From a virus (taxonomy: Duplodnaviria; Heunggongvirae; Uroviricota; Caudoviricetes): DNA of 64,000 bases. Numbering within the stretch: position 1 is the stretch's first letter; each line of letters opens with the position of its first letter. Below are positions 8,147 through 63,871 of the stretch, piece after piece. Below the pieces are notes generated by a model, which searched no databases, was not told the origin of the DNA, and saw only the letters and a program-made list of their open reading frames with translations. The DNA lies in the IMG/VR virus record IMGVR_UViG_2920292642_000002, positions 19,431-83,430 of that record; one strand, given 5' to 3'. The translations under genes and the position numbers were made by a program.

Positions 8147-8803
8147 ATGAACATCGCAGTCCGCATCCCACCGCGCAAGAAGACCCGGCTCACCCCGGTC
8201 GTCACCAAGGTGCAGCCGTCGCATAGCGGCGCGCATGGCAAGGCCAAGATTCTCACCCCTGACCAGTTGCAGACGGCGCTCGGCAAGTGCGACGAGTCGA
8301 CGTTCCCGACGCGCGATCGCCTGATGCTGCTGCTGTCACACTATGCGGCGCTGCGTGCGCAGGAGATTGCCTATCTGGAGTATGAGGATATCTGCGACGT
8401 GGAAGGCCGGATCGTCGGCACGCTCCATGTATCGAAGAAGGCCGGCAAGTACGGCAAGGAGCGGGACATCCCGATGCATCCGGTCCTGCTCAAGGCGCTC
8501 AAGGCGTATTGCGCCGAGGCCGAGATCACCGATGGTCCGATCTTCTTCAGCCGCTTCGGTGAGCAGATGACGCCCAATGCGGTCCAGAAGCAAATCAAGG
8601 CGATCTACAAGGCCTGCAACTTCAAGGGCGCGTCGTCGCACAGCGGCCGGCGTGGTTTCATCACCCGGCTGGCAAGGTCGGCCGGTCAGGAGGAATGCTC
8701 GCTGGTCGACGTGCAGAAGTTGGCCGGTCACGCGTCTCTGACGACGACTGCGCTCTATATCGACGCCAGCCCGCAGGCCAAGCGTCTGGTGATGGCCCTG
8801 TGA
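8147..8803 (+). CDS. int: tyrosine recombinase / phage integrase family (218 aa, short form)
   Basis: catalytic region HSGRRGFITRL ... LAGHASLTTTALYID (R..H-R-Y signature); preceded by GTCAACACAACGGAG leader. Confidence 0.8.
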   Translation: MNIAVRIPPRKKTRLTPVVTKVQPSHSGAHGKAKILTPDQLQTALGKCDESTFPTRDRLMLLLSHYAALRAQEIAYLEYEDICDVEGRIVGTLHVSKKAGKYGKERDIPMHPVLLKALKAYCAEAEITDGPIFFSRFGEQMTPNAVQKQIKAIYKACNFKGASSHSGRRGFITRLARSAGQEECSLVDVQKLAGHASLTTTALYIDASPQAKRLVMAL

Positions 8804-12865: not shown

Positions 12866-13299
12866 AAAGACTCCGTGCTGATGTTGAAAAGAAAAAGCCC
12901 GGCTGGAGCCGGGCTTTCTTCCCCTGTTCTGTTTACAGGCCGGGGATGCCCAGTGGGTTACGCCGCGAGGCGGTTGGCCACAGGGAAATTGTCGTTTGCG
13001 ACAGTTTCTAGGTTCGGACGATAACGGTGTACCTCACCGGGTCGCGTGTCCCCTTGCTCACAGCAGTCGATCCTATTTCGCCCCCATCATAACCACACTG
13101 AGCGCTGCCGTCTTGTGGAAGGCGCGGCCGTTGCCAGTGACGCCCACAGGCGTGATATCTAACCCCAAACGCGGGCCAGTGTGGTTATGGTGGAGGCGGC
13201 GGGTTCCGCCCCCGCGTCCTGCATGCAATCCAGTTTCCCGGATTACGACCATGCGACGTACATACTCCGAAGACCGAGGTGCTGTCAAGTGTTTCTTGC

Positions 13300-13599: not shown

Positions 13600-14369
13600 C
13601 AGCCGTCCTCCAGTCCTGCCAAGGTCTCGCGAATCGTGGCGAGGCGCGTCGTGAAACCCAACGGCTCAAGAAACTCCTCGGATTTCCGCAGGTGGGTGAC
13701 GATAGCCTCCTTCGTGATGGCTCCGTCCTTGATCCGCTTGTGGAAGTATTCGGCCGGCGTCAGGTTCTCAAGCGCGTGAGGACCCTTGGCCTGAGCGACG
13801 ATCTGGAATCGCCTGAGCTTGATGTCCGCCTCCGAGGGAGGATGGTGATCGTCGATCCGATCGACCTCGACCATTTCCGGGAAAGCAATGACTTCATTTT
13901 CGTCCGACAGGAACAGCAGGACATTCGGCACCGGTAGGCGTCCGACCGTCACCGTGGGTTGGTGGGAGCCGGAGAGGTTGGCGAACTGCTCGGCGCGGGC
14001 ACGCTTGGTCGTCCACGAGAAGCCTGTGTGGTTGAGTGCAGAGCCTCCGCGATAGACCTTCAGAGGGGCATCGCGCCGCGCCGCCCGCTTGATGAAGTCA
14101 AGCTCCTCGGCACTCATCGCCATGAACCGGGCCGGCGACTGGATGCGCGCCAGAGTCAGCATGTTCCTGATCTCAACTCCATGCAGGAAGAGAGATTCCG
14201 ATTCACGCCAGACCCTGCGGAACAGGGACCAGAACGCCTCATCGGTAAGCTCCTCATGAATATCGTGCAGGGCGGAAACCCGCTCGAATTTGTCGTGCAT
14301 CGTGAAGATGGCACGGACGAGATCGTCCAACATGTTTTTTGCCTCCCCGTAGAGTTTTGATTGACACAA
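13599..14369 (-). CDS. hypothetical protein (256 aa)
   Basis: ORF track; non-shadow composition; weak R/S-T/E pattern (YRGGSA, FSWTT, EMVEVD) noted. Confidence 0.5.
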   Translation of the reverse strand: MCQSKLYGEAKNMLDDLVRAIFTMHDKFERVSALHDIHEELTDEAFWSLFRRVWRESESLFLHGVEIRNMLTLARIQSPARFMAMSAEELDFIKRAARRDAPLKVYRGGSALNHTGFSWTTKRARAEQFANLSGSHQPTVTVGRLPVPNVLLFLSDENEVIAFPEMVEVDRIDDHHPPSEADIKLRRFQIVAQAKGPHALENLTPAEYFHKRIKDGAITKEAIVTHLRKSEEFLEPLGFTTRLATIRETLAGLEDG

Positions 14370-14450
14370 TCGGCAAGGAAATCTATACGGACTGCGATCG
14401 CGACAATCAATAGACTCTGTCGCGTTTTAACAAGGGATAAGTGGGGCAAC

Positions 14451-15680
14451 ATGTCCGATTTCGAGTTTATCGCCCAAGAGGGCAAGATGAGGTCCCATAT
14501 CAAGGCGTGGAACAGGGGCGTCGAGTTCGACGAGGGCACCTATGCCCAACTTAGAAACATCGCCAGCCTGCCATTCATCCACAAGCATGTGGCCGCTATG
14601 CCAGATGCACATGTCGGCATCGGAGCGACGGTCGGTTCGGTCATCGCCACCAAGGGCGCAGTGATCCCGGCAGCGGTCGGAGTCGACCTCGGCTGCGGAA
14701 TGATGGCGTGGCGCATCTCCCTGAAGGAGAGCGATCTGCCCGACTCGCTTGGCCACATCCGCGCCGAGATGGAGCGCGCGACGCCGCACGGTCGCACCAA
14801 CAACGGTGAGAAGGGTGATCGCGGCGCGTGGGATAACGCTCCGACCTCTGCACTCAACCGCTGGAATGGTCTCTTCGATCGTTACGAACAGATCATCGCC
14901 AAGCACCCGAAGGCCAAGAGCTACAACGGCCTCAACCATCTCGGCACGCTCGGCACCGGCAACCACTTCATCGAGCTTTGCGGTGACGAGAATCAGGACC
15001 TCTGGGTCATGCTGCATTCCGGCTCGCGTGGCATCGGCAACAAGATCGGCTCCTACTTCATTGAGCAGGCGAAGAAGGAGATGGAGCGCTACCACGTCAC
15101 CGAGTACCTGCCGAATGCGGACTGCGCCTATCTGGTCGAACACACCGAGCTTTTCCAAGACTATGTCGAGGCGGTTAGCTGGGCTCAGGACTTCGCGTGG
15201 GAGAACCGCAAGCAGATGATGCACCAGACCATTATGGCCCTGCGGAAGGTGCTGCCGCCGTTCGCTGTAACCCAAGAGGCGATCAACTGCCATCACAACT
15301 ACATCTCTCGCGAGCATCATTTCGGCGAGAACGTGATCGTCACGCGCAAGGGCGCTGTCCGGGCGCGCGAAGGTGATCTCGGGATCATCCCCGGCTCCAT
15401 GGCAACCGGCTCCTACATCGTGCGCGGCAAGGGGAATCACGATTCCTTCTGCTCGTGCTCGCATGGTGCCGGCCGGCGCATGAGCCGTGGTCAGGCCTTC
15501 AAGGCGATCAGCCTCGAAGACCACATCAAGGCGACCGAGGGGGTTGAGTGCAGAAAGGATGCCGACGTGATCGACGAGAGCCCGGCAGCCTACAAGGACC
15601 TCGGCGCGGTGCTCGCCGCCCAGTCCGATCTCGTCGAGGTCGTGCACCGGCTGCGGACGCTCGTGAACGTCAAGGGTTGA
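14451..15680 (+). CDS. rtcB: RNA-splicing ligase RtcB (3'-phosphate/5'-OH RNA ligase)
   Basis: VGVDLGCGM, GNHFIELCGDEN, HSGSRGIGNKIG, SCSHGAGRRMSRGQA metal/GTP-binding motifs; start aligned to canonical RtcB N-terminus (MSDFEFIAQEGKMRSHIKAW). Confidence 0.9.
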   Translation: MSDFEFIAQEGKMRSHIKAWNRGVEFDEGTYAQLRNIASLPFIHKHVAAMPDAHVGIGATVGSVIATKGAVIPAAVGVDLGCGMMAWRISLKESDLPDSLGHIRAEMERATPHGRTNNGEKGDRGAWDNAPTSALNRWNGLFDRYEQIIAKHPKAKSYNGLNHLGTLGTGNHFIELCGDENQDLWVMLHSGSRGIGNKIGSYFIEQAKKEMERYHVTEYLPNADCAYLVEHTELFQDYVEAVSWAQDFAWENRKQMMHQTIMALRKVLPPFAVTQEAINCHHNYISREHHFGENVIVTRKGAVRAREGDLGIIPGSMATGSYIVRGKGNHDSFCSCSHGAGRRMSRGQAFKAISLEDHIKATEGVECRKDADVIDESPAAYKDLGAVLAAQSDLVEVVHRLRTLVNVKG

Positions 15681-22932: not shown

Positions 22933-23042
22933 ACAGGTCTCCTTGAGCCGGTCAGAGGTAATCCTTGACCTCCCGGACTGTCCAGAGTATCTGTCCAAGA
23001 CTGCGCGACTGTCAAGCGTATCTTTTCACTCTTATGGTTAAC

Positions 23043-23117
23043 GACGTGGTGGCGGAGTGGCTTACGCGCCGGATTGCAACCCCGGTCACGCCGGTTCAAT
23101 TCCGGCTCACGTCTCCA
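23043..23117 (+). tRNA. tRNA-Cys(GCA), CCA encoded, U73 discriminator
   Basis: manual cloverleaf: acceptor GACGTGG/TCACGTC, T-arm GCCGG-TTCAATT-CCGGC, anticodon loop TTGCAAC; A31-C39 mismatch. Confidence 0.6.
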
Positions 23118-25196: not shown

Positions 25197-25272
25197 TGGT
25201 CCCAGCGGCAGGATTCGAACCTGCGACCTCTCCCTTATGAGGGGAAAGCACTACCGCCGTGCTCCACTGGGT
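25197..25272 (-). tRNA. tRNA-Met(CAT) (elongator or Ile-lysidine type)
   Basis: manual fold: T-arm GCAGG-TTCGAAT-CCTGC, anticodon loop CTCATAA, CCA encoded. Confidence 0.6.
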
Positions 25273-25748
25273 TAATCGCGTCGGACCACCTGAATGGGGC
25301 CGTCCGACAGAATGTCGTGCTTGATGCAGACCTCGACGGCGCGCTCGGCCGTCGCGCCCATCTCCAGAGCACCCACGGCGATCATGTCGCCGGAGCCGAA
25401 GACGTGCCATTCGCTCTCGACCTCGTAAGGTGGATCGTCCCCCTCGAAGCGGATGCAGACGCCGTCCGGCTTGATCACGAAGCCGGTGCAGTTGTCGTCC
25501 TTCCCAGTCGGCTCGATCCGAGGACTGCTGTACTCCAGATTCTGGAGGAACTTGGGGAAGTTGTCCGAGCGGCACCAGCGGATGAACTTGGCGACGTAGG
25601 GCGCTTCGCCGGTCCCACCGACGAGGTAGGCTTCACCATCGACATCGACGCGAGCGATCTTCTCGGCGTGGCCGAGCACGTTCCAGTTGCGTCGGATCAA
25701 CTGAGAATCCGACGCAAGGACACCGTCACGATAGACGAGGACAGTCAT
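25272..25748 (-). CDS. HslV-like N-terminal-nucleophile peptidase (proteasome beta-subunit family)
   Basis: MTVLVYRDG N-terminus (Thr2) and GSGDMIAVGALEMGATAERAVEV similar to HslV. Confidence 0.5.
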   Translation of the reverse strand: MTVLVYRDGVLASDSQLIRRNWNVLGHAEKIARVDVDGEAYLVGGTGEAPYVAKFIRWCRSDNFPKFLQNLEYSSPRIEPTGKDDNCTGFVIKPDGVCIRFEGDDPPYEVESEWHVFGSGDMIAVGALEMGATAERAVEVCIKHDILSDGPIQVVRRD

Positions 25749-26131
25749 CAGTAGCGCGCCGCGCCGAGCGAACGGGAAGGCGCAGCGCCCAGACCGGTCT
25801 CGGTGGACTTCTTGCCCTTCTTCTTGTTGTCGTCGAAGAACTTGTCGAGCGACTGGACCTGCACCGCCTTGACGATCAGGCGAACGATCGCGACCGGGTA
25901 GGTATTGGCCGAGGCCGAAACATCTCCGAAAGTGGCGATCGACGACTCGGTGTCGCCATTGCCGATCTTCCCGCCGACATCCCCCTTTCCGAGGATCGAA
26001 TTGACGGCCGCAGCCGCCTTGGTCACGTCGGTGAGGTCGGTGCCGAGGAGATTGTTCGCTGCTGCGAGCGCCGCGTCCTCGTCGTTGAGCTTGCTGATTT
26101 CGACCAGCTTCTCGAAGTCGTTTCTGTCCAT
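25748..26131 (-). CDS. hypothetical protein (127 aa)
   Basis: ORF track. Confidence 0.45.
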   Translation of the reverse strand: MDRNDFEKLVEISKLNDEDAALAAANNLLGTDLTDVTKAAAAVNSILGKGDVGGKIGNGDTESSIATFGDVSASANTYPVAIVRLIVKAVQVQSLDKFFDDNKKKGKKSTETGLGAAPSRSLGAARY

Positions 26132-26203
26132 GCCCGGAACTCCCTTGTGGTTAGGCTTGCGGGATTCCGTTTAGGGGTTCTTTACGGCAGTGTCAAGAAA
26201 AAC

Positions 26204-26277
26204 TGGATGCCCTGCCACGACTCGAACGTGGACTCATCGCTTCAAAGGCGCGCGTCCTACCTTTAGACGACAGGGCA
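26204..26277 (-). tRNA. tRNA-Gln(TTG)-like; weak anticodon stem
   Basis: manual fold: acceptor TGCCCTG/CAGGGCA, T-arm CCACG-TTCGAGT-CGTGG, loop CTTTGAA, CCA encoded. Confidence 0.5.
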
Positions 26278-26287
26278 GGAGTGAGGG

Positions 26288-26360
26288 TGGCTCGGCAGGT
26301 ACGGGTCGAACGTACATCGGCTGATTCAGAGTCAGCGTGCTTACCATTAGCGACTGCCGA
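26288..26360 (-). tRNA. tRNA-Gln(CTG)
   Basis: manual fold: anticodon arm GCTGA-CTCTGAA-TCAGC, T-arm GTACG-TTCGACC-CGTAC, CCA encoded. Confidence 0.6.
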
Positions 26361-26366
26361 ATAAAC

Positions 26367-26443
26367 TGGTGCCAAGGGGAAGTTTCGAGCTTCCGACCTC
26401 CGGGGTTTCAATCCGGCGCTCTAACCATCTGAGCTACCAAGGC
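26367..26443 (-). tRNA. tRNA-Phe(GAA)-like; U-U mismatches in acceptor stem
   Basis: manual fold: D-arm GCTC-AGATGGTTA-GAGC, loop TTGAAAC, T-loop CTCGAAA, CCA encoded. Confidence 0.5.
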
Positions 26444-26451
26444 ATAAAAAT

Positions 26452-26537
26452 TGGCTCGCGAGGGAGGGATCGAACCTCCGCCCCCTTCGGGGTCCACCGG
26501 TTAACAGCCGGGAACATTACCACTCTGCCACTCGCAA
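26452..26537 (-). tRNA. class II (long variable arm) tRNA with anticodon loop CTGTTAA (reads GTT/Asn-like; one base from Tyr GTA)
   Basis: manual fold: variable arm CCCCGAAGGGGG, T-arm GGAGG-TTCGATC-CCTCC, acceptor starts UU. Confidence 0.45.
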
Positions 26538-26546
26538 TCATAACAC

Positions 26547-26634
26547 TGGAGAACCGGGTGGGGATCGAACCCACGGTGGGCTTTCGCCATCGGATTAAAA
26601 GTCCGCGCCCTTCGACCAACTTGGATACCGGTTC
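26547..26634 (-). tRNA. class II scaffold tRNA with Lys anticodon TTT
   Basis: manual fold 88 nt: acceptor GAACCGG/CCGGTTC, variable arm GGCGAAAGCC, loop CTTTTAA, T-arm GTGGG-TTCGATC-CCCAC. Confidence 0.45.
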
Positions 26635-26640
26635 ACGATC

Positions 26641-26715
26641 TGGAGCCCTGCTCGGGGACCGCACCCGCTTCTACCGCTTACAAGGCGGCTGCTTCACTCT
26701 CAAAGCTTTCAGGGC
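26641..26715 (-). tRNA. tRNA-Thr(TGT)-like; non-canonical T-loop TGCGGTC
   Basis: manual fold: D-arm GCTT-TGAGAGTG-AAGC, anticodon arm GCCGC-CTTGTAA-GCGGT. Confidence 0.5.
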
Positions 26716-26721
26716 ATTGTC

Positions 26722-26796
26722 TGGAGCCTCGGTCGGGAACTGCACCCGCTTCTGACCGGTACGAACGGCCTGCTTCACTCGCAAAGCTTTCGAGGC
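26722..26796 (-). tRNA. tRNA-Thr(CGT)-like; non-canonical T-loop TGCAGTT
   Basis: paralog of previous unit; anticodon arm GGCCG-TTCGTAC-CGGTC. Confidence 0.5.
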
Positions 26797-26807
26797 ATAA
26801 TAAATAA

Positions 26808-26895
26808 TGGAGTACCCGGCTGGATTCGAACCAGCGGTGTGCTTTCGCAGGCGGATTAAGAGTCCGACGCCATCGACCAACTCGGCCACGGGTAC
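26808..26895 (-). tRNA. class II scaffold tRNA with Lys anticodon CTT
   Basis: manual fold 88 nt: D-arm GCC-GAGTTGGTCGAT-GGC (Ser-like), loop CTCTTAA, variable arm TGCGAAAGCA, T-arm GCTGG-TTCGAAT-CCAGC. Confidence 0.45.
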
Positions 26896-26901
26896 ATTAG
26901 C

Positions 26902-26975
26902 TGGAGCCGACACGTGGAATTGAACCACGGCTCCGTCCTTACCACGGACGGCGTCTACCACTGACATATATCGGC
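26902..26975 (-). tRNA. tRNA-Thr(GGT)
   Basis: manual fold: anticodon arm CGTCC-GTGGTAA-GGACG, T-arm CGTGG-TTCAATT-CCACG. Confidence 0.6.
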
Positions 26976-27060
26976 AAAATTTAACTGTCTCGATTAATCG
27001 AGCCGCAACTTGTCCTTGCTACAACCGCTGTGCTGATCACAACACCACGAGGCAACAGAC

Positions 27061-27243
27061 ATGATGAAACTGCTGAAGCGCTTCCAGAGCGATGAGTCTG
27101 GAGCAACTGCAATCGAATACGGCCTGATCGCTGCTTTGATCGCGCTGGCGATCGTCGTCGGCGCTGGCGCACTCGGCGAGAACCTGAACGCCAAGTTTCA
27201 GGCAATCAGTGACCAGTTGGCGGGTACGCCGGAGGGAGAATAG
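27061..27243 (+). CDS. flp: Flp/Fap-family type IVb (Tad) pilin precursor (60 aa)
   Basis: prepilin signature KRFQSDESGATAIEYGLIAALIALAIVV matching the Flp motif; own terminator follows. Confidence 0.75.
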   Translation: MMKLLKRFQSDESGATAIEYGLIAALIALAIVVGAGALGENLNAKFQAISDQLAGTPEGE

Positions 27244-27282
27244 AGTTCCTTGTCCGCGTTACAGCAACGACAAGCAACTGAC

Positions 27283-27310
27283 CGCCCTCCGGGGCGGTTT
27301 TTTTTTTTTG
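27283..27310 (+). terminator. rho-independent terminator of flp-like gene
   Basis: CCGCCCTCCGGGGCGG hairpin followed by T11. Confidence 0.65.
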
Positions 27311-27386
27311 GTGGAGACGGTGAGAATCGAACTCACAACAGCCTGCTTGCAAGGCGGGCTCGCTAACCCTTAGAACATGCGTCCCC
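27309..27386 (-). tRNA. tRNA-like, probably Ala(TGC); D-arm unclear
   Basis: T-arm GTGAG-TTCGATT-CTCAC, acceptor GGGGACG/CGTCTCC, loop CTTGCAA. Confidence 0.4.
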
Positions 27387-27563
27387 AAACTCTGAAAAAT
27401 GATCCGGCAGGCGGGCGAGTGTCCCCGCGTCATCTCCCCGGCTAGACAGCACCGAGGTTTTGCAGCCACGCCTTGTCTAAGGGCGGGTCGCTATGTCCGG
27501 AAGGTCACGTTATTCCACGCCAGACCATCCGCTGCTCGTCGCGTTCTGAGCTACTGCCGAAAC

Positions 27564-27640
27564 TGGACCTTCCGGCTGGGATCGAACCAGCGCCCTCCAG
27601 CTTCGGAGGCCGGCGCTCTTGTCCGCTGAGCTACGGAAGG
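27564..27640 (-). tRNA. tRNA-Arg(CCG)
   Basis: manual fold: anticodon arm CCGGC-CTCCGAA-GCTGG? with T-arm GCTGG-TTCGATC-CCAGC, acceptor CCTTCCG/CGGAAGG. Confidence 0.55.
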
Positions 27641-27643
27641 AAT

Positions 27644-27718
27644 TGGAGCGGGTAGCGAGGGTCGAACTCGCGCCTCTAGGCTGGCAACCTAGTGCTCTAC
27701 CAACTGAGCTATACCTGC
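27644..27718 (-). tRNA. tRNA-Gly(GCC)
   Basis: manual fold: anticodon arm CTAGG-TTGCCAG-CCTAG, D-arm GCTC-AGTTGGTA-GAGC, T-arm GCGAG-TTCGACC-CTCGC. Confidence 0.6.
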
Positions 27719-27905
27719 AATTTCGCGGGGTGGGGCTCAGGTCATCACTCCTGTCCCCTGAGCGGGTGATGATCCGGTTTGGGGCCGGTCCCTCTCCCCC
27801 TGCTCGGAGAGCCCGAAGGCTCAATCCTTGGAAACTCTCGACAGGGGTCACCTGTCGCTAGGCAAGGCTCTGAAGGTTGACGAGACCTTCGCCCTTGCGT
27901 GCCTA

Positions 27906-27983
27906 TGGCCTCCCCGGAGAGATTCGAACTCCCGACACGGGAGGTAGAAGCTCCCTGCTCTAGGTCCACTGAGCTACGGAGAG
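27906..27983 (-). tRNA. tRNA-Arg(TCT)
   Basis: manual fold: anticodon arm GGGAG-CTTCTAC-CTCCC, T-arm GGGAG-TTCGAAT-CTCTC. Confidence 0.55.
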
Positions 27984-28431
27984 GAGATCGCTTTTGGAGG
28001 GAGGCCAGCAGGCCATCGTTAGATGGAGTGTCAACACAACGGAGTCGCAAGACTTGCCGAAGCTGCCGACCTCCCGCCAAAGGCGATCTAGGTGCCGAAA
28101 GCGTGAGACTACCGCTTTCGATGACGACCTTCCCGCATTATCCGACGCCTTGCGAGCGTGGTTCTCGGGATGTCCACGCCGAGCATATTGCTATGTCTCG
28201 ACGTATTCGTCAATGCCGCCTTTTTTAGCGCGTGGCGTTTCGCGCGTCGCTGCGTGCTATTCGGCGTCTCGTCGACCGTGAGCCTTGCGGGCTCTTCGCG
28301 GCTGCTACACCGCTACGATCTCTTCCTCACCGACACCCTCCAGCTTGCGACCTTCAGGTGACCCAGTTCCCCGCAGGGCTGGGCATTAGGCATCTTTCAC
28401 ACGCAACCGGGACAGGCTTTGCGTTTTGTTA

Positions 28432-28506
28432 TCGTGAGGCCGGATTTGAACCGGCGACCGATGGCTTAGAGGGCCATTGCGCTACCAACTGCGCTACTCG
28501 CAACCC
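28432..28506 (-). tRNA. tRNA-like (anticodon loop CCTCTAA, TCT with C33; no encoded CCA) - possible pseudo-tRNA
   Basis: T-arm GCCGG-TTCAAAT-CCGGC, D-arm GCGC-AGTTGGTA-GCGC, acceptor with mismatch. Confidence 0.35.
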
Positions 28507-29061
28507 ACCGAGACGTGCTGCCCCAGTTGCTCCAAGCCCTTTTGGGACCCAGAATACAACACGCCTGCTGCTACCTTTCGCGCTGCTAACGCTACTCGAT
28601 CATGCTTCGAGATCACGGGTCATTTCAGCCCGAGACCTTGCCACATTGCCAGACGCCCTCGGCCGCTAAGCCTCGAACCTTCTGACTACCCTTCATCATC
28701 GGCCATCGATCAGTTTGCGTGCCGGGCGCGCTTTGCGAGCGCTTGAGGGCCACCATCGGCTACCCTCTTATCCAACCTTGCGGGTCGGACCCTGCCTGAT
28801 CTTCGGGCCTAGCCCACCTTCCGGTAAGCCGGGTGTCCCCGTGACTGGGCTTGCATGGCTGGACGCGGTTACCCGCGTGGAGGTTTATGGGAAACCCTCC
28901 TTTGGGCCGGTTGCCCGGCTTACCCTGACGACGCCATGCCGCCAAACTCTGCTCCGGTTCTCGTCGCCGATCGCCGTCGCCTTGTTGTCCTCTAACTACT
29001 TCACGACTGCGCCGCCCGTCAAGCATTAATTTGCAATCGTGTTAAGATTTTTTCGACATAC

Positions 29062-29141
29062 TGGAGCGCACGGCAGGGGTCGAACCTGCATCTTCCTCCA
29101 TTACCTTACTCTCGGTTCGTAGCCGAGGGGGTTACGTGCGC
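29062..29141 (-). tRNA. tRNA-Arg(ACG)-like with aberrant architecture (no recognisable D-arm, 21-nt insertion after anticodon arm)
   Basis: perfect acceptor GCGCACG/CGTGCGC, anticodon arm CTCGG-CTACGAA-CCGAG identical to E. coli tRNA-Arg ACG, T-arm GCAGG-TTCGACC-CCTGC. Confidence 0.4.
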
Positions 29142-29146
29142 ATAAA

Positions 29147-29222
29147 TGGCGAGCCATAAGGGAGTCGAACCCTCCTTCTCCGATCGACAGTCGGAGCCCT
29201 TCACCACGACGGGAAATGGCCC
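29147..29222 (-). tRNA. tRNA-Asp(GTC)
   Basis: manual fold: anticodon arm TCCGA-CTGTCGA-TCGGA, T-arm GAGGG-TTCGACT-CCCTT, CCA encoded. Confidence 0.6.
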
Positions 29223-29230
29223 ATTGAAAA

Positions 29231-29305
29231 TGGAACTGGGAGCCCGGCTCGAACGGGCGATTCCGGGGACACAACCCGGCCGGTTACCTCTACCGTCATC
29301 CCAGC
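29231..29305 (-). tRNA. tRNA-His(GTG)
   Basis: manual fold: anticodon arm CCGGG-TTGTGTC-CCCGG, T-arm GCCCG-TTCGAGC-CGGGC. Confidence 0.6.
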
Positions 29306-29313
29306 ATAGTGTT

Positions 29314-29388
29314 TGGAGCGGACTGCCGGGATCGAACCGGCCTTGGGAGATTGGAAGCCTCTTAACTCACCGAGAGCAAGCCCGCATG
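29314..29388 (-). tRNA. tRNA-like, probably Gly(TCC); short D-arm
   Basis: T-arm GCCGG-TTCGATC-CCGGC, acceptor GCGGGCT/AGTCCGC, loop CTTCCAA. Confidence 0.4.
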
Positions 29389-29400
29389 TCTGGTACGCCT

Positions 29401-29482
29401 AGCAGGACTTGAACCTGCACGCCGAAGCACGGGCATCTCAGTCCCGCGTGTCTACCTTTCCACCATAGGCGCATGTTTGTTT
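29401..29482 (-). tRNA. tRNA-Leu(GAG), class II
   Basis: loop CTGAGAT, variable hairpin TGCTTCGGCGT, T-arm GCAGG-TTCAAGT-CCTGC. Confidence 0.5.
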
Positions 29483-29621
29483 GGCGGGGCCGAACACCTG
29501 TCGACCCGATCCGGACGCGATCCCGGACCCTGCACGATTACCCTCTCGCCGATCGCGCGGCCGTTCATGACCGGCCTTTGTTCTCGGGCGATTTTGATGA
29601 AGAGAGTCGCCGTCGCCAATC

Positions 29622-29704
29622 TGGTGTCCGAGGGGAGACTTGAACTCCCACGCCGAAGCTCTGCGGTCTGAGCGCAGTGCGTCTTCCGATTCCGCCACTC
29701 GGAC
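29622..29704 (-). tRNA. tRNA-Leu(CAG), class II
   Basis: anticodon arm CTGCG-CTCAGAC-CGCAG, variable AGCTTCGGCGT, T-arm GGGAG-TTCAAGT-CTCCC. Confidence 0.6.
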
Positions 29705-29710
29705 ATGTCT

Positions 29711-29820
29711 GGTGGAGTGTGACCGGATTTTTACCGGAGCCCATAGGGACAGGTGTACGGCCTGTTCGGGATAGGCAGTCCCGCTCGCAGACCTCTAGCG
29801 GTCCGCTTAATCACAACTCC
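29711..29820 (-). ncRNA. unresolved 110-nt tRNA-like RNA (acceptor-like ends GGAGTTGTG...CACACTCCACCA, multiple internal hairpins; no canonical T-loop)
   Basis: encoded CCA tail and terminal helix but atypical internal structure. Confidence 0.3.
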
Positions 29821-29825
29821 ATAGA

Positions 29826-29904
29826 TGGTGCCTCGCCCCGGATTCGAACCGGGAGGATGTCGCCGGGTTTGAGCCGACCGCGTCTTCCGTTCCGCCAGCA
29901 AGGC
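29826..29904 (-). tRNA. tRNA-Leu(CAA)
   Basis: anticodon arm GTCGG-CTCAAAC-CCGGC, T-arm CCCGG-TTCGAAT-CCGGG. Confidence 0.55.
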
Positions 29905-29960
29905 ATTGATACGTTTAGAGGTATAGAGCGCGCGGCTCTATACGTCTAAAGGTATCAGAT

Positions 29961-30035
29961 CGTGGCAAAGGCTGAGAGATTCGAACTCCCGCCGCAGGGT
30001 TTTGGAGACCCGCATGCTACCGCTACAACAAGCCG
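29961..30035 (-). tRNA. tRNA-Trp(CCA)-like; two mismatches in acceptor stem
   Basis: anticodon loop CTCCAAA as in E. coli tRNA-Trp, T-arm GGGAG-TTCGAAT-CTCTC. Confidence 0.45.
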
Positions 30036-30556
30036 ATCCACGAGCCCCGGCCGGACGGATTCCCGGCCGGGGTTTCTGATGTCATCATTCCTACGATGTC
30101 AAAGAACGGGACCCTAACTAAGGTCCAAATGCAAGAAGGCCCCGGAGATTTCTCGCCGGGGCCTTCTGATCGATCCGAGGATGGTACTGTTAGAATACAG
30201 TACCTCCGTCGCCAGAAGACCCCATGATACCGAACAGATTGGTATCAAGCAGACGCAAGGAGGCGCGGCGCGACTGCGCCGTCCCACTCGTCATTTGATG
30301 CCAATACTGCTGTTTCACAGCGGTCTTCCTTGTTCACGTCCCTCAGGAGAGCGGATATCCGCTGGTCGACTCCGAGGGCTCATTCCGAAATTCTGTTGCG
30401 GTCCCCATACGGTGAACCTGAGAGCGGCGTCAGCCAAGCTCAGCGCGAATGATGAACAATCCTGAGACGTTTGTCAAGCAAGAAAATCATCCGTCTCAAG
30501 AAAAAGTTTACATCGGAAAAGGTTGACGATCGAGTCACGAGGGCTAGATGTCGGGC

Positions 30557-30676
30557 TGTTACGAAGTCGGAGCATGGTGCTCTGATCATTTTTGAGAGGG
30601 AGCAATCTCAAGAGTGAAAGTGGACTCTTCCCAGACTTGACCATGAGTCTAGCCCGCTTCGGCGGGCTTCTTTTTT
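30557..30676 (+). ncRNA. candidate small RNA (promoter-like TTGACG-N17-TAGATG upstream, strong terminator at 3' end)
   Basis: no credible ORF; hairpin GCCCGCTTCGGCGGGC followed by TTCTTTTTT at 30653-30676. Confidence 0.25.
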
Positions 30677-30679
30677 GGA

Positions 30680-30754
30680 TGGCAGCCCATGACGGTTTCG
30701 ATCCGTCTTCTCCTGATTGAGAATCAGGTGTCCTATCCACTAGACGAATGGGCC
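30680..30754 (-). tRNA. tRNA-Glu(CTC); T-loop ATCGAAA (A54)
   Basis: anticodon arm CCTGA-TTCTCAA-TCAGG, D-arm GTC-TAGTGGATAG-GAC, CCA encoded. Confidence 0.55.
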
Positions 30755-30758
30755 AAAT

Positions 30759-30837
30759 TGGTCGGGCGGACGGGGCTCGAACCCGCATCGCAACGCTTGA
30801 AAGGCGCGCCACCTAGTCCAGTTTAGAAGGACCGCCC
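30759..30837 (-). tRNA. tRNA-Glu(TTC)-like; weak anticodon stem
   Basis: perfect acceptor CGGGCGG/CCGCCCG, loop CTTTCAA, T-arm GCGGG-TTCGAGC-CCCGT. Confidence 0.5.
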
Positions 30838-30914
30838 GTGGTCCTCGACCGTGGTTTCGATCCACGTGCCTCCGGCGTGTCGTGCCGGCGCTCTCCCGAG
30901 TGAGCTAGTCGAGG
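30838..30914 (-). tRNA. tRNA-Val(GAC)-like with C33 (loop ACGACAC); abuts previous tRNA
   Basis: anticodon stem CCGGC/GCCGG, T-arm CGTGG-ATCGAAA-CCACG, acceptor CCTCGAC/GTCGAGG. Confidence 0.45.
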
Positions 30915-30915
30915 T

Positions 30916-30991
30916 TGGTTGACCCTGCCGGTTTCGATCCGGCTGCCTCCTGTGTGTAAGACAGGCGCTCTCCCGAGTGAGCTAAGGGTCT
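30916..30991 (-). tRNA. tRNA-Val(TAC); 1-72 mismatch
   Basis: anticodon arm CCTGT-CTTACAC-ACAGG, T-arm GCCGG-ATCGAAA-CCGGC. Confidence 0.55.
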
Positions 30992-30995
30992 GAAC

Positions 30996-31069
30996 TGGTT
31001 GTCCCACTGAGAATCGAACTCAGATCAACCGCTTATCAAGCGGACGCTCTACCGTTGAGCTATGGGACG
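30996..31069 (-). tRNA. tRNA-Ile(GAT); C1-A72 mismatch
   Basis: loop TTGATAA, D-arm GCTC-AACGGTA-GAGC, T-arm CTGAG-TTCGATT-CTCAG. Confidence 0.55.
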
Positions 31070-31110
31070 ACACCGGGCCGAGGCTTGCGCCCCGACCCGA
31101 TGGGGCTTGT

Positions 31111-31185
31111 TGGTCTGGGTGCGGAGTTCCGCCCTCCGGCATCCGGCTTCCAAGGCCGGTACTCTTCTGCACGAGCTTCACCCAG
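31111..31185 (-). tRNA. tRNA-Pro(TGG)-like with non-canonical D- and T-loops
   Basis: perfect acceptor CTGGGTG/CACCCAG, anticodon arm CCGGC-CTTGGAA-GCCGG, T-loop GGCGGAA. Confidence 0.4.
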
Positions 31186-31195
31186 TTATCAGGCA

Positions 31196-31240
31196 AAAAA
31201 GAAGGCCCGGTTTTCACCGGGCCTTTGAAGTTGCCAACAG
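31196..31240. terminator. bidirectional hairpin terminator
   Basis: GGCCCGGTTTTCACCGGGCC flanked by AAAAAAGAA and TTTGAAG. Confidence 0.5.
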
Positions 31241-31352
31241 AACTCTTGATTGGTTCAGTCGCGCAATACCTTCCGGCCCGATTCCTCGGTCGGTTCAATG
31301 ATCTCCACGACGGGGACGATCAGGTTGCGCACTGGTGTTCTCCTAACGAAAT

Positions 31353-31431
31353 TGGTTGCGGCGGCTGGATTTGAACCAGCGATCTTCTGGTTATGAACCA
31401 AACGAGATTGACCGGGCTTCTCTACACCGCA
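31353..31431 (-). tRNA. tRNA-Met(CAT) (second CAU tRNA; Met/Ile2 unresolved)
   Basis: loop TTCATAA, D-arm GAGA-AGCCCGGTCAA-TCTC, T-arm GCTGG-TTCAAAT-CCAGC, CCA encoded. Confidence 0.5.
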
Positions 31432-43848: not shown

Positions 43849-44593
43849 CTGCACTCAACCTGTTTGGGCCGGGTTTCCCTGTGTGCGCAAGCGCAGTCGC
43901 GCGGTCTCAATAGTGGACGATCTGGGTGCACCGGTCCCAACCCCTTCCTCTCCCTTTAAGCCAAGAGAAGGCGTAGCATTTATGGTTAGCGCCTATGCTT
44001 AATCCTGTCAATCGTATCTTTACACGTTCGGACATCCGTTCTGGACGCGTCGGCTCCTCCTCTCCCCTCGACGAGGCGGTAGCCGGTCGGTCAGACAGGG
44101 CGGTAGTTAGGGATTAGAGTTATTGGCTAATCTAAAATGCTACTGCTTCTCAAGGCTTTTAGGTAGGTTAAGGGGTAAGAGAAATTTAGAGGACCAGAAA
44201 ACTAGAAGCTGAGAAAACCAGAAATCCATCAGTCGATCAGGTTGAGTTCAGAGCGTCTGCACTCAACCCGAGATCAACGGACGGGCACGCCCCTTCTCAC
44301 CGGACAGCCGCCGCGCCGGCCGCACTCGATCCAGCGCAGCACGATCCACTTGATCCAATTCTAAAAGGTTGAGTGCAGACCGGCACCATCCACGCCCAAT
44401 CCCATCCTCTCCAAATCCCTTCTCCCAGCAGGATGAGTGCAGACCGGCACCATCCAAAACTCAGACTTACAAACACCGGGTTGAGTGCAGACGCGCTTCA
44501 CAGCCCGATCGCTTTGTCAAGGTATTATAGTGAGCCACTGTCCAGAATTTCTTGACATTTAGCCTCCAGAAGTCGAGACTCCGCACATTCTCC

Positions 44594-45136
44594 AAAATGC
44601 GTGCGGTGCACATGACTCTGACCCTCAAGCGGCCACGGCCGACCTTTGCGCAAGTCTTCGCGACGACCGCACATCCCGACGTTCTCCATTGGATTTCCAA
44701 AAGCGAAGCGCGCATCGGCCCGGACGCCTATAAGGAGTTCGTCGGCTCGCTCCCCTCCGAGCACACGCAGTTCCTGCACCTGCTCGAAGTGTCACTGCGA
44801 CAGGGTCAGGGCAATCTCGACGGCTTTCGCGTCGCCTCCGATCTCAAATCCTATCTCGATTGGCCGGTCGATTCCGAACTGGTCAAGATCATCGACGACG
44901 CCGTGGACATGACCCAGCGCAAGAACCTGCGGCTGGCGACGATCGCATGGGTGATGGAGACTGGCACCCGCTTCCACGCCAAACCCTCCGAGGAAGTCCA
45001 ATATCGCGGCGAGACCTTTTCCGGCACACGCTCCGGCCGCGTCGTCGAGGTCGACAGGGTGATCGCCTCTGGCACCGTCGCCGATGCCAATGACCAGCGC
45101 TGGACCGTACTCGGCGAAAATCTGGTGGCGGCATGA
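44594..45136 (+). CDS. hypothetical protein (180 aa)
   Basis: ORF 44552..45136 from ATG 44594 preceded by GTCCAGAAT...TTGACA promoter-like region. Confidence 0.45.
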   Translation, partial: KMRAVHMTLTLKRPRPTFAQVFATTAHPDVLHWISKSEARIGPDAYKEFVGSLPSEHTQFLHLLEVSLRQGQGNLDGFRVASDLKSYLDWPVDSELVKIIDDAVDMTQRKNLRLATIAWVMETGTRFHAKPSEEVQYRGETFSGTRSGRVVEVDRVIASGTVADANDQRWTVLGENLVAA

Positions 45137-45699
45137 AGTGGTCGGACAAAACCATCCGGCCGGGACCTGTCTGCGGCATCGATCCGGGCGTCGACGGCGC
45201 ACTCGCCTTTCTCGATGTGACCGACTGGACGATCGAGATCGTCGACGTTCCGAAGATAAAGGTCATCGTCAACGGTAAGCCGCGTCATCACGTCGACCAT
45301 GTCCGCCTCGCCGAGATCATCACGGCGCGCCGGCCGTGGATGATCGTCACCGAGCATCTGTGGTCGCGGCCCGGTCAGGACGCCAAGGGCCTGTTCTCGC
45401 TCGGCCGCTACACCGGACAGGTCGAAATGGCCTCCTCCATGCTCGGCTGTGACCTCCGGCAGGTGACGCCGCAGGAGTGGAAGTCCGACCTCGCCGTCTC
45501 CTCCGACAAGAACCTCAGCCGCGAACGCGCCGCGCAACTGATGCCGTGCCTCGCGCCGACCCTCACCCGCAAGGGCGACCACGATCGCGGCGAGGCCGCG
45601 CTGCTCGCCTTCTGGGGCGCGCTCAAGCTCGGCCGCATGCCCAAGCCGATCCGCCTCATCAACCCACCCGCCCCTCCCAAGAGAAAGAAAGCAGCATGA
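45133..45699 (+). CDS. RuvC-like Holliday-junction resolvase (RNase H fold)
   Basis: N-terminal GIDPGVDGALAFLD motif and acidic residues. Confidence 0.5.
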   Translation: MKWSDKTIRPGPVCGIDPGVDGALAFLDVTDWTIEIVDVPKIKVIVNGKPRHHVDHVRLAEIITARRPWMIVTEHLWSRPGQDAKGLFSLGRYTGQVEMASSMLGCDLRQVTPQEWKSDLAVSSDKNLSRERAAQLMPCLAPTLTRKGDHDRGEAALLAFWGALKLGRMPKPIRLINPPAPPKRKKAA

Positions 45700-46091
45700 A
45701 GAAAATGAACTGGGACGACGAGATGCGTACCCACGTCCCGTCGATGTTCATCACCGAGGATGACGACGACGAGGTCGAGTTGGTCGACACCGGCCGCGTC
45801 GACAAGGACGGCGTCCCGATCATCATCGCGCTCTCTCACAAGCAGGGCTTCGCCGGCTTCCTGCCGCCCGGAATGTACGAGCGTATCCAGCAGGCGAAGG
45901 AGGAGGCCGAGGCCAAGGCTGAGCTTACCGAGATGATCGAGGAGATCGTCACCGTCACGCTGAAGAAGATCGGCATCAAGCTCCCGCCGCCCGCGCCGGG
46001 GCCGGCTCCGGCTGTGATCCCGCGCATCAAGGAGAAGACTGTCAAGGTCTCGAACAAGAAGAAGGGATCGGCCGATGCCCGTCCTGAGTAA
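45696..46091 (+). CDS. hypothetical protein (131 aa)
   Basis: tail of ORF 45477..46091 from ATG 45696. Confidence 0.4.
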   Translation: MKKMNWDDEMRTHVPSMFITEDDDDEVELVDTGRVDKDGVPIIIALSHKQGFAGFLPPGMYERIQQAKEEAEAKAELTEMIEEIVTVTLKKIGIKLPPPAPGPAPAVIPRIKEKTVKVSNKKKGSADARPE

Positions 46092-46566
46092 CCCGAAATG
46101 GGAGGTCTTCGCCACCGGTCTGGCGGACGGCCTCACCGTTCTCGATGCCTATGAGCAGGCCGGCTACCCGCGCTCGGCCTCCTCGGCGTCGCAGTTGAAG
46201 AACCGGCCTGAGCTTCAGTCGCGCGTGCAGGAACTGATCTACGAGAAGCAGAGCGCCGCCCGGCGTGAGTCCGAGAATGATCCCGACATCAACCCGCACG
46301 AACTCAACCGTGCATGGTTGATCACCACGCTGATGAAGAATGTCGAGATCGCCCAGAAGGCGCAGCAGATCGCACCGGCCAACAAGGCGGTCGAGATGCT
46401 GGCCGAGATCATCGGCTACTCGCTCAAGAACCGTGGCGGCAAGAACGCCAACGACGACGACCCCAACAAGGACGGCGAAGCGCCCGGCTTTGATTTCGAC
46501 AAGGCCAATGACGCCATCGGCCGGCTCATGGAAGTGCTGCCGGACGCACCGACCGAGGGTAGCTGA
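46075..46566 (+). CDS. terS: terminase small subunit
   Basis: N-terminal HTH-like region PKWEVFATGLADGLTVLDAYEQAGYP typical of phage small terminase family; immediately upstream of terL. Confidence 0.6.
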   Translation: MPVLSNPKWEVFATGLADGLTVLDAYEQAGYPRSASSASQLKNRPELQSRVQELIYEKQSAARRESENDPDINPHELNRAWLITTLMKNVEIAQKAQQIAPANKAVEMLAEIIGYSLKNRGGKNANDDDPNKDGEAPGFDFDKANDAIGRLMEVLPDAPTEGS

Positions 46567-62006: not shown

Positions 62007-62226
62007 GCCCCTCGACCTTGCCTAAAATTTTACCGAAATTTTTTACCGACCGTTAACCATACTCAGGTAAGGTAAACGAAAAGTTAACGCGACCGGCGCA
62101 GGTCGAGGCCGCGCGCCGGCCGCGTTAACGCGCCGTTAACCATGTCCAGAATAGGTCGACAAAGGCGCTTGCAATTCATGCAGGATGCACTAATCTCCGT
62201 CATGTCAACGCAACGGAGATTTGGTC

Positions 62227-62388
62227 ATGAAAAAGAATGTTCTGCACTTCGGACTGGATAGCGGATTCAAGGCGATCGCCCGCGATCACAACGTGACTCG
62301 CCGGACTTTCAAGGGCGAATACGTCACGGTAAAGCCGAGCTTCGCCCGCGTCATCGTCGACGCGATCAAAAACATTTTCGGCCTTTAA
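62227..62388 (+). CDS. cassette small protein (53 aa)
   Basis: manual translation. Confidence 0.4.
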   Translation: MKKNVLHFGLDSGFKAIARDHNVTRRTFKGEYVTVKPSFARVIVDAIKNIFGL

Positions 62389-62400
62389 GGAGGCCGAGAA

Positions 62401-62565
62401 ATGAAGCCGATCCGCTTCGATATCATCGATCGCCACACTGGAAAGAAGGTCGGCGAGGCGACGACTCGGGCAGGGGCGAATCGCTCCGTTGATCGCCGCG
62501 ATAACGCGTATGGCGCATATCGATACTCGGCAAAACCGATCTATGCCGAGGACAAGGCCGCGTAA
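62401..62565 (+). CDS. cassette small protein (54 aa, ends EDKAA)
   Basis: manual translation; stop in terminator loop. Confidence 0.4.
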   Translation: MKPIRFDIIDRHTGKKVGEATTRAGANRSVDRRDNAYGAYRYSAKPIYAEDKAA

Positions 62566-62695
62566 GCGGCCTTTTCTTTTGCCGATCGAGGCCGTTAACC
62601 CGGCGTTAACCATGTCCAGAATGGGTTTACAATCGTCCTTGCAATTCGTGCCGAATGCAATATTCTGTCCTTGTCAACGCAACGGAGTAAGCAAA

Positions 62696-62872
62696 ATGCG
62701 CTGCAAGATTTTCAATCTCTTCGAAGGCGAAATTCTTTTCCGAGTCGGCGAGGCGTTTCACGTCCAGTTGGACAACGGAATCGAAGTCAAGGTCGACGCG
62801 GCCGATGTCGATTTCTTCGCCTACATGCCGACGATCGAACTGGTCGAAGTTGTGGAGTATGTCGCGGCTTAG
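62696..62872 (+). CDS. cassette small protein (58 aa)
   Basis: tail of ORF 62489..62872. Confidence 0.4.
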   Translation: MRCKIFNLFEGEILFRVGEAFHVQLDNGIEVKVDAADVDFFAYMPTIELVEVVEYVAA

Positions 62873-62902
62873 GCCGCGACATTTCAACCGAGGAGGTTTG
62901 AA

Positions 62903-63145
62903 ATGCAGCCTTTCACCCTTTCGATCGAAACCGATGCTGGCACCTATCGGCACGGATTCCATCTCGGCACAATCGAGCGACTCGCGCGCGAACTGGCGGA
63001 GGAGATTTGTCTAAAGCGGAGGCCGCAACGCGGCACGCGAATCGTCACTGTCGCGCTTTGCCGCTTTGAGTCGATCGTCGACGTTTTCGACGGTAAAGAC
63101 TGGTCAAATGCGCTGCTTTCCAAGTTCGCCGAGGAGGCCGCGTAA
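62903..63145 (+). CDS. cassette small protein (80 aa, ends EEAA)
   Basis: ORF track. Confidence 0.5.
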   Translation: MQPFTLSIETDAGTYRHGFHLGTIERLARELAEEICLKRRPQRGTRIVTVALCRFESIVDVFDGKDWSNALLSKFAEEAA

Positions 63146-63265
63146 GCGGCCTTTTCTTTTGTTAACTCGGCGTTAACCATGGCGAGGAGTGGTTTACAAA
63201 AGGACTTGCGGCAATTCGTGCGGCATGCAATATTCACATTGTCAACGCAACTGAGGAGTCACCAA

Positions 63266-63496
63266 ATGCGCCGCTATCATCGTCCTGAAATGCTCCGCCA
63301 AGCCGCCCGCGTCCTCGGGCTGAATCGCACGCGCGATGGCGATCTCCGCCCCATGGTTTATGCTCTCCGCATGCTGCCGCGCCTTAACACTCCTGAGGAG
63401 AATCAGCGACTCGATGCGGCCGTTTACGCAATGCGACATTGGACGGAATTTCAAAACTTGTGCGGCCGTGTTCGAACTGGTCGCGAAACACTCTAA
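63266..63496 (+). CDS. cassette small protein (76 aa)
   Basis: tail of ORF 63179..63496. Confidence 0.45.
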   Translation: MRRYHRPEMLRQAARVLGLNRTRDGDLRPMVYALRMLPRLNTPEENQRLDAAVYAMRHWTEFQNLCGRVRTGRETL

Positions 63497-63530
63497 AAGA
63501 AAGGCCGCGAAAGCGGCCTTTTTCTTTTAC

Positions 63531-63768: not shown

Positions 63769-63871
63769 AACCTCTTGTTAACCATGTCCAGTATTGGTTT
63801 ACAAAAGGACTTGTGCCAAATCATGCGCCATGCAATAACACTCTTGTCAACGCAACTGAGGAGTTCAAGAC

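Follow-up and report, generated by a model that had tools for sequence, protein, structure and literature searches.

A solitary Flp pilin gene inserted antisense to the tRNA array of a phage genome related to Cp1R7A-A1

A phage genome collinear with that of Mesorhizobium phage Cp1R7A-A1 carries an intact, solitary gene for a Flp-type pilin (flp), inserted as a cassette with its own strong terminator between two tRNA genes and on the strand opposite to them. The encoded pilin shares an identical 29-residue segment with two Flp proteins encoded on the same bacterial contig and differs from them in its C-terminal tail. From this arrangement we infer that flp may be expressed, that its product may be processed and co-assembled into the host pilus, and that such pili may serve to exclude other phages. 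Tad pili are the receptors of classic alphaproteobacterial phages, among them phiCbK and PhiCb5, and surface sensing and adhesion depend centrally on them. The DNA analysed, called here the window, is a stretch of 64,000 nucleotides; the limits of the flp gene parts and of the neighbouring genes are collected in Table 1.

Results

The phage gene encodes a canonical Flp prepilin

The flp open reading frame (27061..27243, plus strand) starts with ATG, is intact and codes for a protein of 60 residues, which reads MMKLLKRFQSDESG/ATAIEYGLIAALIALAIVVGAGALGENLNAKFQAISDQLAGTPEGE when written as leader and mature part. The protein matches the Pfam family Flp_Fap (PF04964) with a score of 68.5 bits (E 4.3e-19; cut-off 32.2) over positions 1–45 of the 46 in the profile, far above chance. 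Its layout comprises three segments, MMKLLKRFQSDESG / ATAIEYGLIAALIALAIVVGAGALG / ENLNAKFQAISDQLAGTPEGE, and displays the pattern of the family, namely a short basic leader running to a glycine, the G/xxxxEY motif and a stretch of about 20 hydrophobic residues. The cleavage motif of the prepilin is G/ATAIEY, and residues G14, T16, I18, E19 and Y20, which are invariant in an alignment of 23 sequences (alignment A4), are all kept in the phage protein.

Caulobacter PilA has a leader of 14 residues and a mature helix of about 45 residues (PMC11067988). The solved mature chains of Caulobacter Tad pilins (8U1K, which is PilA, 8U2B and 8UCR) all start at the residue aligned to A15 of the phage protein, and cleavage is therefore predicted after G14; the products would be a leader of 14 residues and a mature helix of 46. 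Residues 15–48 align to residues 1–34 of the 45-residue Caulobacter pilin, and, going by this alignment, the predicted 46-residue product has the build of a small mature pilin, that is, about 45 residues, a single helix and no globular domain. Removal of the leader is predicted to fall to a prepilin peptidase of the TadV/CpaA type supplied by the host. The original prediction of a Flp/Tad-type pilin with a canonical prepilin motif is thus borne out by the Flp_Fap score and by the alignment of the cleavage site to solved pilins. Disruption of the gene, which would have spoken against a function, is not seen: the reading frame is full, every invariant residue is present and a GAGG ribosome-binding site precedes the start codon.

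A holin reading of the protein (phrog_4712, E 0.062) was dropped, the Flp_Fap match being far stronger. Neither the PADLOC defence-system components nor the NCBIfam models gave a match to flp, and a PHROG profile search likewise yielded no matching family. The protein has no sequence homology to FimU or to the type IVa PilA, Flp_Fap being the only family matched. As a protein it is an ordinary Flp pilin, already annotated as 'Flp family type IVb pilin'.

The window is collinear with phage Cp1R7A-A1

The window encodes a DNA polymerase, a helicase, a primase-like protein of 1249 residues, RtcB, NAMPT, NMNAT/Nudix, TerS, TerL and an integrase-family protein, and over its entire 64 kb it matches the gene order of Mesorhizobium phage Cp1R7A-A1 (MT188704, 131 kb), gene by gene, with protein identities of 40–87%. 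The replication and packaging genes, together with a collinearity that extends across the whole window, agree with the earlier description of the surroundings of flp as an otherwise phage region. Cp1R7A-A1 clusters phylogenetically with the pilitropic phiCbK-like phages of Caulobacter and has promoters that were found experimentally to be bound by CtrA (PMC9437464). Protein database searches yielded two further relatives, one in a Mesorhizobium assembly (L172) and one from a sequencing run (L173). With the neighbouring 158-residue protein as query, no further phage relatives were detected in IMG/VR or in metagenome contigs, and the relatives returned by a scan with NMNAT did not exceed 43% identity and all lacked flp. 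Cp1R7A-A1 encodes two tyrosine recombinases, a homologue of one of which is present at 8147-8803 of the window.

Some further features of the phage genome were noted. Four CtrA boxes (perfect TTAA-N7-TTAA) are clustered at 62125-63781, within 1.7 kb, compared with 0.08 expected per window; the stretch holding the cluster is collinear with the left end of Cp1R7A-A1, a phage in which CtrA sites are concentrated in the terminal repeats and the promoter of Cp1R7AA1_019 binds CtrA (PMC9437464). The window lacks the four-gene 'tail fibre' module of Cp1R7A-A1, to which DUF2793 and F5/8 type C proteins belong. The module would be expected between a (p)ppGpp hydrolase-like gene with tRNA-Cys and the glutaredoxin gene, where the window has only 22998-23057 against 44375-48407 in MT188704 and 8845-12873 in L172. 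Judged from gene content, this absence points to a different host-recognition set. In addition, a permuted two-piece tmRNA gene of alphaproteobacterial type is located on the minus strand of the phage replication region (12958-13269; RF04321, 101.6 bits; RF01849, 89.1 bits).

The flp cassette is a lineage-specific insertion

ARAGORN identifies 26 tRNA genes in the window, 25 of which form an array (25197-31431) that lies entirely on the minus strand. The flp gene occupies the plus strand and is thus antisense to this array; the gap that holds it measures 333 nt and separates tRNA-Thr from tRNA-Ala (Table 1). The earlier description of the gene as embedded in the tRNA array is therefore correct as to its place between two array tRNAs, and has to be amended as to its orientation: flp is on the opposite strand, antisense to the array and not a member of it. 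The spacing between tRNA-Ala and tRNA-Thr is 9 nt in both Cp1R7A-A1 and L172, compared with 333 nt here, and the relative L173 is without tRNA-Ala. All three relatives lack flp in their tRNA arrays, and no flp is found anywhere in the whole Cp1R7A-A1 genome. Since none of the three carries flp at the tRNA junction, the gene is a lineage-specific insertion, and its absence from them indicates that it is dispensable for the phage. The cassette also differs in composition: its GC content is 54%, whereas the window has 60%, and its GC3 is 0.71, below the 0.76–0.84 of the phage genes. The view of flp as a moron, put forward at the outset as one possibility, is upheld by its absence from the junction in the three syntenic relatives, by its own terminator and by its position on the strand opposite to its neighbours.

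The upstream region contains a GAGG ribosome-binding site (27049-27052) 8 nt ahead of the ATG, a perfect 14-bp palindrome (CTCGATTAATCGAG, 26989-27002) and a weak -35-like element CTTGTC (27009-27014), which is part of a weak CTTGTC...CTGATC pair. A role of the palindrome as a repeated operator is ruled out, as it occurs once in the window. A sigma-70 scan of 26976-27060, of a kind that covers alphaproteobacterial and activator-dependent promoters poorly, gave no match. There is no TTAA-N7-TTAA CtrA box upstream of flp, and control by CtrA is rejected for now, the spacing present being TTAA-N9-TTAA and not N7. The upstream region shows no similarity to any other part of the window.

The 3′ UTR of flp folds into two hairpins (-28.9 kcal/mol, z = -4.2). 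The first spans 27244-27279, and the second, at 27280-27299, is formed by a stem of 8 bp with 6 GC pairs (GACCGCCC-TCCG-GGGCGGTT), directly after which comes a run of 12 T (27298-27309) that reaches the 3′ end of tRNA-Ala, which is on the opposite strand. This is the sole run of eight or more T on both strands of the 64-kb window. A generic terminator scan of the region overall found 3 sites against 2.7 expected, without enrichment, and the case for a terminator therefore rests on the extremity of this single site. The GC-rich hairpin, the T12 run unique in the window and the z value of its fold do substantiate the strong terminator that had been assigned to flp.

Imperfect direct (15-nt) and inverted (17-nt) repeats (CTTGTCC..GCTACAAC) at 27009-27025 and 27249-27274 flank the flp reading frame, and could represent a pairing between 5′ and 3′ UTRs, a remnant of capture, or chance. 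A transposon-like insertion of flp is unsupported, the flanks showing only short imperfect repeats.

Elsewhere in the array, tRNA-Asn and both tRNA-Lys (26452-26537, 26547-26634 and 26808-26895) are unusually long, at 86–88 nt, as they are in Cp1R7A-A1, and the same phage encodes an RtcB RNA ligase (14361-15680); the two may be linked through tRNA repair or processing. The array also holds a full-length GOLLD RNA (RF02032; 205 bits, gathering score 150) on the minus strand at 28100-28566, inside which a tRNA-Arg(tct) is nested (28430-28504). GOLLD is likewise found in Cp1R7A-A1 (L001 7345-7807), L172 (2837-3299) and L173 (7009-7461), the copies of Cp1R7A-A1 and L172 holding a nested tRNA; the MT188704 record has no GOLLD annotation.

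Table 1. Parts of the flp cassette and its flanking genes (positions in the window)
Feature	Position	Strand	Basis
tRNA-Thr(ggt), left neighbour, transcribed away from flp	26902..26975	-	ARAGORN; Rfam tRNA; alignment with Cp1R7A-A1
Whole inserted flp cassette, 333 nt	26976..27308	+	Alignment A3, tRNA maps, composition
flp upstream region, 85 nt	26976..27060	+	Sequence
Leader peptide MMKLLKRFQSDESG, 14 aa (predicted)	27061..27102	+	Aligned to the mature start of 8U1K/8U2B; G14 invariant
Flp motif and hydrophobic assembly core ATAIEYGLIAALIALAIVVGAGALG	27103..27177	+	Pfam Flp_Fap; match to the tandem Flp proteins
Divergent C-terminal tail ENLNAKFQAISDQLAGTPEGE and stop codon	27178..27243	+	Comparison with the other Flp proteins of the contig
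flp 3′ UTR	27244..27309	+	Fold and T-run scan
tRNA-Ala(tgc), right neighbour, convergent with flp	27309..27386	-	ARAGORN; Rfam 30.4 bits

The phage pilin and the resident pilins share an identical core and differ in their tails

The exact flp protein is present in Pseudaminobacter soli 19-2017 (MBS3648770.1 / WP_188254334.1), where its contig measures 391,276 bp. That contig also encodes eleven more of the window's proteins, whose accession numbers, from MBS3648741 to MBS3648822, follow the order of the window. The phage genome thus lies within a bacterial contig, apparently as a prophage, or else as the result of an assembly join. The phiCbK-related phage group is postulated to be virulent, and the bacterial location of one of its relatives suggests either lysogeny or such a join. 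The phage origin attributed to the DNA consequently holds for its genes and calls for one correction, namely that the genome resides inside the 391-kb contig of P. soli and is apparently a prophage.

Two adjacent Flp proteins of 54 residues (MBS3648647 and MBS3648648) are encoded on the same contig, about 122 CDS upstream of phage flp, a distance taken from GenBank accession order only. By a rough count, these tandem genes would be situated some 15–25 genes beyond a prophage of the size of Cp1, but they may also lie inside it. The phage pilin is 79% and 77% identical to the two proteins and has an uninterrupted run of 29 residues in common with them, DESGATAIEYGLIAALIALAIVVGAGALG (DESG...GAGALG; P0036 and P0073). 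This exact core recurs in 13 of the 120 best database hits, most Mesorhizobium pilins having ...AIIVG... or ...AIMVG.... The tails diverge, the tandem proteins ending in NNLSNKFNAIADKLK and the phage protein in ENLNAKFQAISDQLAGTPEGE, which is acidic and 6 residues longer. Comparison with host pilins by BLAST, which had been proposed as a check on the host-like nature of the gene, thus returns a segment of 29 residues identical to two Flp proteins of the same contig. Judging from the aligned sequences, the phage pilin matches those of the host in the part that would be processed and buried, and differs from them in the part that would face outward.

Searches by tblastn with CpaA-F, TadB and TadC found nothing in the 64-kb window; because the phage window encodes no Tad machinery, the prepilin must use that of the host. 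A protein search with CpaF for this machinery returned Mesorhizobium proteins only. Tad machinery would be expected beside the tandem flp genes, judging from their tandem arrangement and from what is typical of bacterial loci (53 of 80).

Close metagenomic homologues of the phage pilin (P0002 and P0003) are located on short contigs unrelated to the phage of the window. P0002, encoded at 184-438 of an ENA contig (L108), is a Flp protein of 84 residues in which the ATAIEYGLIAALIA...G core segment is internally repeated in tandem; the duplication is either genuine or due to misassembly.

Unrelated viral contigs also carry solitary flp genes

A scan of IMG/VR retrieved 24 viral contigs that carry flp, whose 20 distinct proteins all match Flp_Fap and which make up at least 14 sequence clusters unrelated to one another. 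In none of the 24 was any of eight tad genes found within about 8 kb of flp, whereas the same eight queries place at least three tad genes within 10 kb of flp in 53 of 80 bacterial loci. A tad-operon neighbourhood is typical of the Flp family and is not part of its definition; the phage flp is an orphan pilin gene. These viral genes resemble that of the window in being stand-alone, in having their own terminator, in lacking tad genes and in matching Flp_Fap. They differ in belonging to unrelated phages, TerS alone being weakly similar, and in encoding Flp proteins that are 44–61% identical to that of the window.

The largest cluster consists of ten prophage-like contigs of about 54 kb (among L002-L014), in which flp adjoins TerS, TerL and portal genes and converges on a tRNA-Met gene, as in L010 (8001-8183 and 8429-8506). 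Within this cluster, the 135 nt upstream of flp and its first 100 or so nucleotides are 87–95% identical and the terminator is 87–93% identical, whereas the part coding for the tail is only 39–68% identical; the tails are often rich in glycine and acidic residues. These patterns of identity describe a conserved cassette with a hypervariable, putatively exposed tail. Phage hallmark genes are found near flp in L024 (TerL), L018 (tail lysin) and L019 (helicase/primase); for L005, L015, L021 and L022, such genes are unconfirmed and the viral status is that of the IMG/VR classification. Among 50,697 GenBank phage records no Flp was detected by tblastn or blastn, the first tblastn being weakened by its low-complexity filter.

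Discussion

A variant pilin that may mask a phage receptor

We tentatively propose that phage flp encodes a variant major pilin which, assembled by the host Tad apparatus, masks a phage receptor in the manner of P-FimU and P-PilA. According to this proposal, a Cp1R7A-A1-like siphophage would have captured a stand-alone Flp major-pilin gene as an autonomous cassette made up of ribosome-binding site, reading frame and strong terminator. The TadV/CpaA peptidase of the host would cut the phage prepilin after G14, and the Cpa/Tad apparatus would polymerise the 46-residue helix through a core identical to that of the resident pilins, so that the longer, acidic, phage-specific tail would end up on the pilus surface. 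Pili containing the phage pilin might then escape recognition by pilus-dependent phages, whether kin or competitors. The pay-off would be twofold: the lysogen or infected cell would be protected, and progeny would be spared adsorption to doomed cells. The antisense position of flp and its private terminator suggest that it is expressed independently of the lytic transcription of the tRNAs and probably to its exclusion, that is, from the prophage.

Masking, or superinfection exclusion, was among the roles suggested at the outset and is plausible; it is favoured by the P-FimU precedent, by the kinship of the phage with pilitropic phiCbK-like phages and by the orientation of Tad pilins, whose C-terminus faces outward and in Caulobacter contacts the Mat protein of phage PhiCb5 (PMC11067988). 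The kept core and hypervariable tail of the ten-contig prophage cluster, together with the recurrence of solitary flp genes, argue in the same direction. The proposal is weakened, on the other hand, by the fact that neither a promoter nor a CtrA box was detected upstream of flp, and by the lack in the window of the tail-fibre module of Cp1R7A-A1. Moreover, transcription of the tRNA array, which runs antisense through flp, could silence the gene. The difference in the tails is not in itself specific evidence for an anti-phage role, because variable C-termini are general among bacterial Flp pilins.

The location of the phage element inside a bacterial contig, and a cassette that is normal and complete with a tail similar to those of P0042, P0004 and other bacterial Flp proteins, would also suit a lysogenic conversion to the benefit of the host, in which the extra pilin alters or boosts Tad pili (adhesion, biofilm, colonisation or antigenic variation) and exclusion is not what is selected. 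Indeed, the Flp proteins of Vibrio harveyi prophages have been interpreted as adhesion or virulence factors (PMC12482185). We nevertheless consider such a conversion rather unlikely here: two Flp genes with the same core are already on the contig, so that all a third copy would bring is a new surface; the phage lineage has pilitropic relatives; and the hypervariable tail of the prophage cluster suits an arms race better than a housekeeping adhesion. It is also unlikely that flp is a neutral or decaying passenger, that is, a recent fragment of a host tad locus (pilin and terminator) lodged in a permissive tRNA spacer and giving no useful expression. The failure to find a promoter, the antisense position to a heavily transcribed tRNA array and the absence of flp from the three relatives would all be expected of a passenger, and a host flp likewise has its own terminator (L080), so that the reading frame with its terminator may be the unit captured. 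However, the reading frame is unbroken, lacks none of the invariant residues and is preceded by a good ribosome-binding site (GAGG); the nearest homologue besides the protein itself being 79% identical, the capture was not very recent, and yet no decay is seen. That solitary flp genes occur in at least 14 sequence clusters of viral contigs, their promoter, core and terminator being conserved, further argues for selection.

A pilin whose core is identical to that of the resident pilins should compete for their machinery, and could act as a poison, or dominant-negative, subunit whose tail, longer and acidic, would prevent polymerisation or block the way through the secretin, thereby removing the pili and with them the receptor. 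The same alternative has been raised by Sztanko et al. for truncated phage PilA proteins (PMC12952977), and some phage proteins, such as Aqs1, are known to shut down type IV pili. Such an action is nonetheless improbable, given that ordinary bacterial Flp pilins have tails of similar length and charge and that the sequence bears no mark of an assembly defect. Finally, the phage pilin might act as a signalling decoy, feeding from the membrane into the pilus/c-di-GMP/CtrA circuitry and steering the state of the host in favour of CtrA-dependent phage genes. The four perfect CtrA boxes, against 0.08 expected, and the CtrA-bound promoters of Cp1R7A-A1 (PMC9437464) are compatible with a decoy, as is the link between Caulobacter Tad pili and cell-cycle regulation (PMC11067988). 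The argument is purely circumstantial, flp itself has no CtrA box, and a decoy function is very improbable. To our knowledge, no such CtrA/pilus circuit has been described in Pseudaminobacter.

Returning to receptor masking, a broader formulation can be considered, albeit a doubtful one: the solitary phage Flp proteins could be widespread and so far unrecognised 'tail-swap' major pilins, by which phages of Alphaproteobacteria alter the surface of the host Tad pilus. The window would then be an example from a phiCbK-related phage that is integrated, unexpectedly for its group, in a bacterial chromosome. If masking is true, no receptor-masking device described so far would be simpler than a helix of 46 residues that re-surfaces the Tad pilus by means of a new tail; the defence in which a phage replaces a component of the pilus would be extended from type IVa to Tad pili, and the strong variation of Flp C-termini would be explained in part. 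If flp is silent, it amounts to no more than a piece of the host that was captured and is of little interest. The idea lends itself to direct testing, as there is both a strain, P. soli 19-2017, and a phage relative in culture.

Comparison with known systems

With the bacterial Flp/PilA proteins of Tad (type IVc) pili, the phage protein shares the Pfam family, the 14-residue leader, the G/ATAIEY motif and a mature helix of about 45 residues, and an own terminator after the pilin gene is likewise found in bacteria (L080). It differs from them in that its gene is solitary and located in a phage genome antisense to tRNAs, and in that its tail is distinct and longer.

Phage-borne Flp pilins have precedents in the tailed prophages phi354 and phiGAN1709 of V. 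harveyi, where they were read as adhesion or virulence factors (PMC12482185). Those genes also encode prophage-borne pilins of the Flp family recognised by annotation; in contrast to the present case, the host is gammaproteobacterial, the phages are unrelated and the study neither compares core and tail nor considers an anti-phage role. No functional study of any phage-borne Flp was found in the searchable literature. Among the sources searched, the present gene is the first Flp found in a phiCbK-related phage, and the Flp/Tad type of phage pilins has barely been noted before.

Aqs1 and related phage proteins, which disable type IV pili, would have the same presumed goal, the pilus receptor being removed or altered such that other phages are excluded. 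They are not pilin subunits, however, and act as inhibitors by binding to the motor or machinery.

The precedent for the proposed role is P-FimU, a type IVa minor pilin whose prophage-encoded copies enter the pilus, keep its function and block phages that bind the tip (PMC12952977); PilA-like genes are known from both prophages and virulent phages (Sztanko et al., Cell Rep 2026, PMC12952977). In P-FimU and P-PilA, as in the window, a phage copy of a host pilus subunit keeps the part needed for assembly and varies the part that is exposed. The gene of the window encodes instead a major pilin of the Tad/type IVc class, a single helix without a globular domain, for which exclusion is only putative. 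As the phage Flp falls outside the FimU and PilA families, it would be the strategy alone that the two systems have in common.
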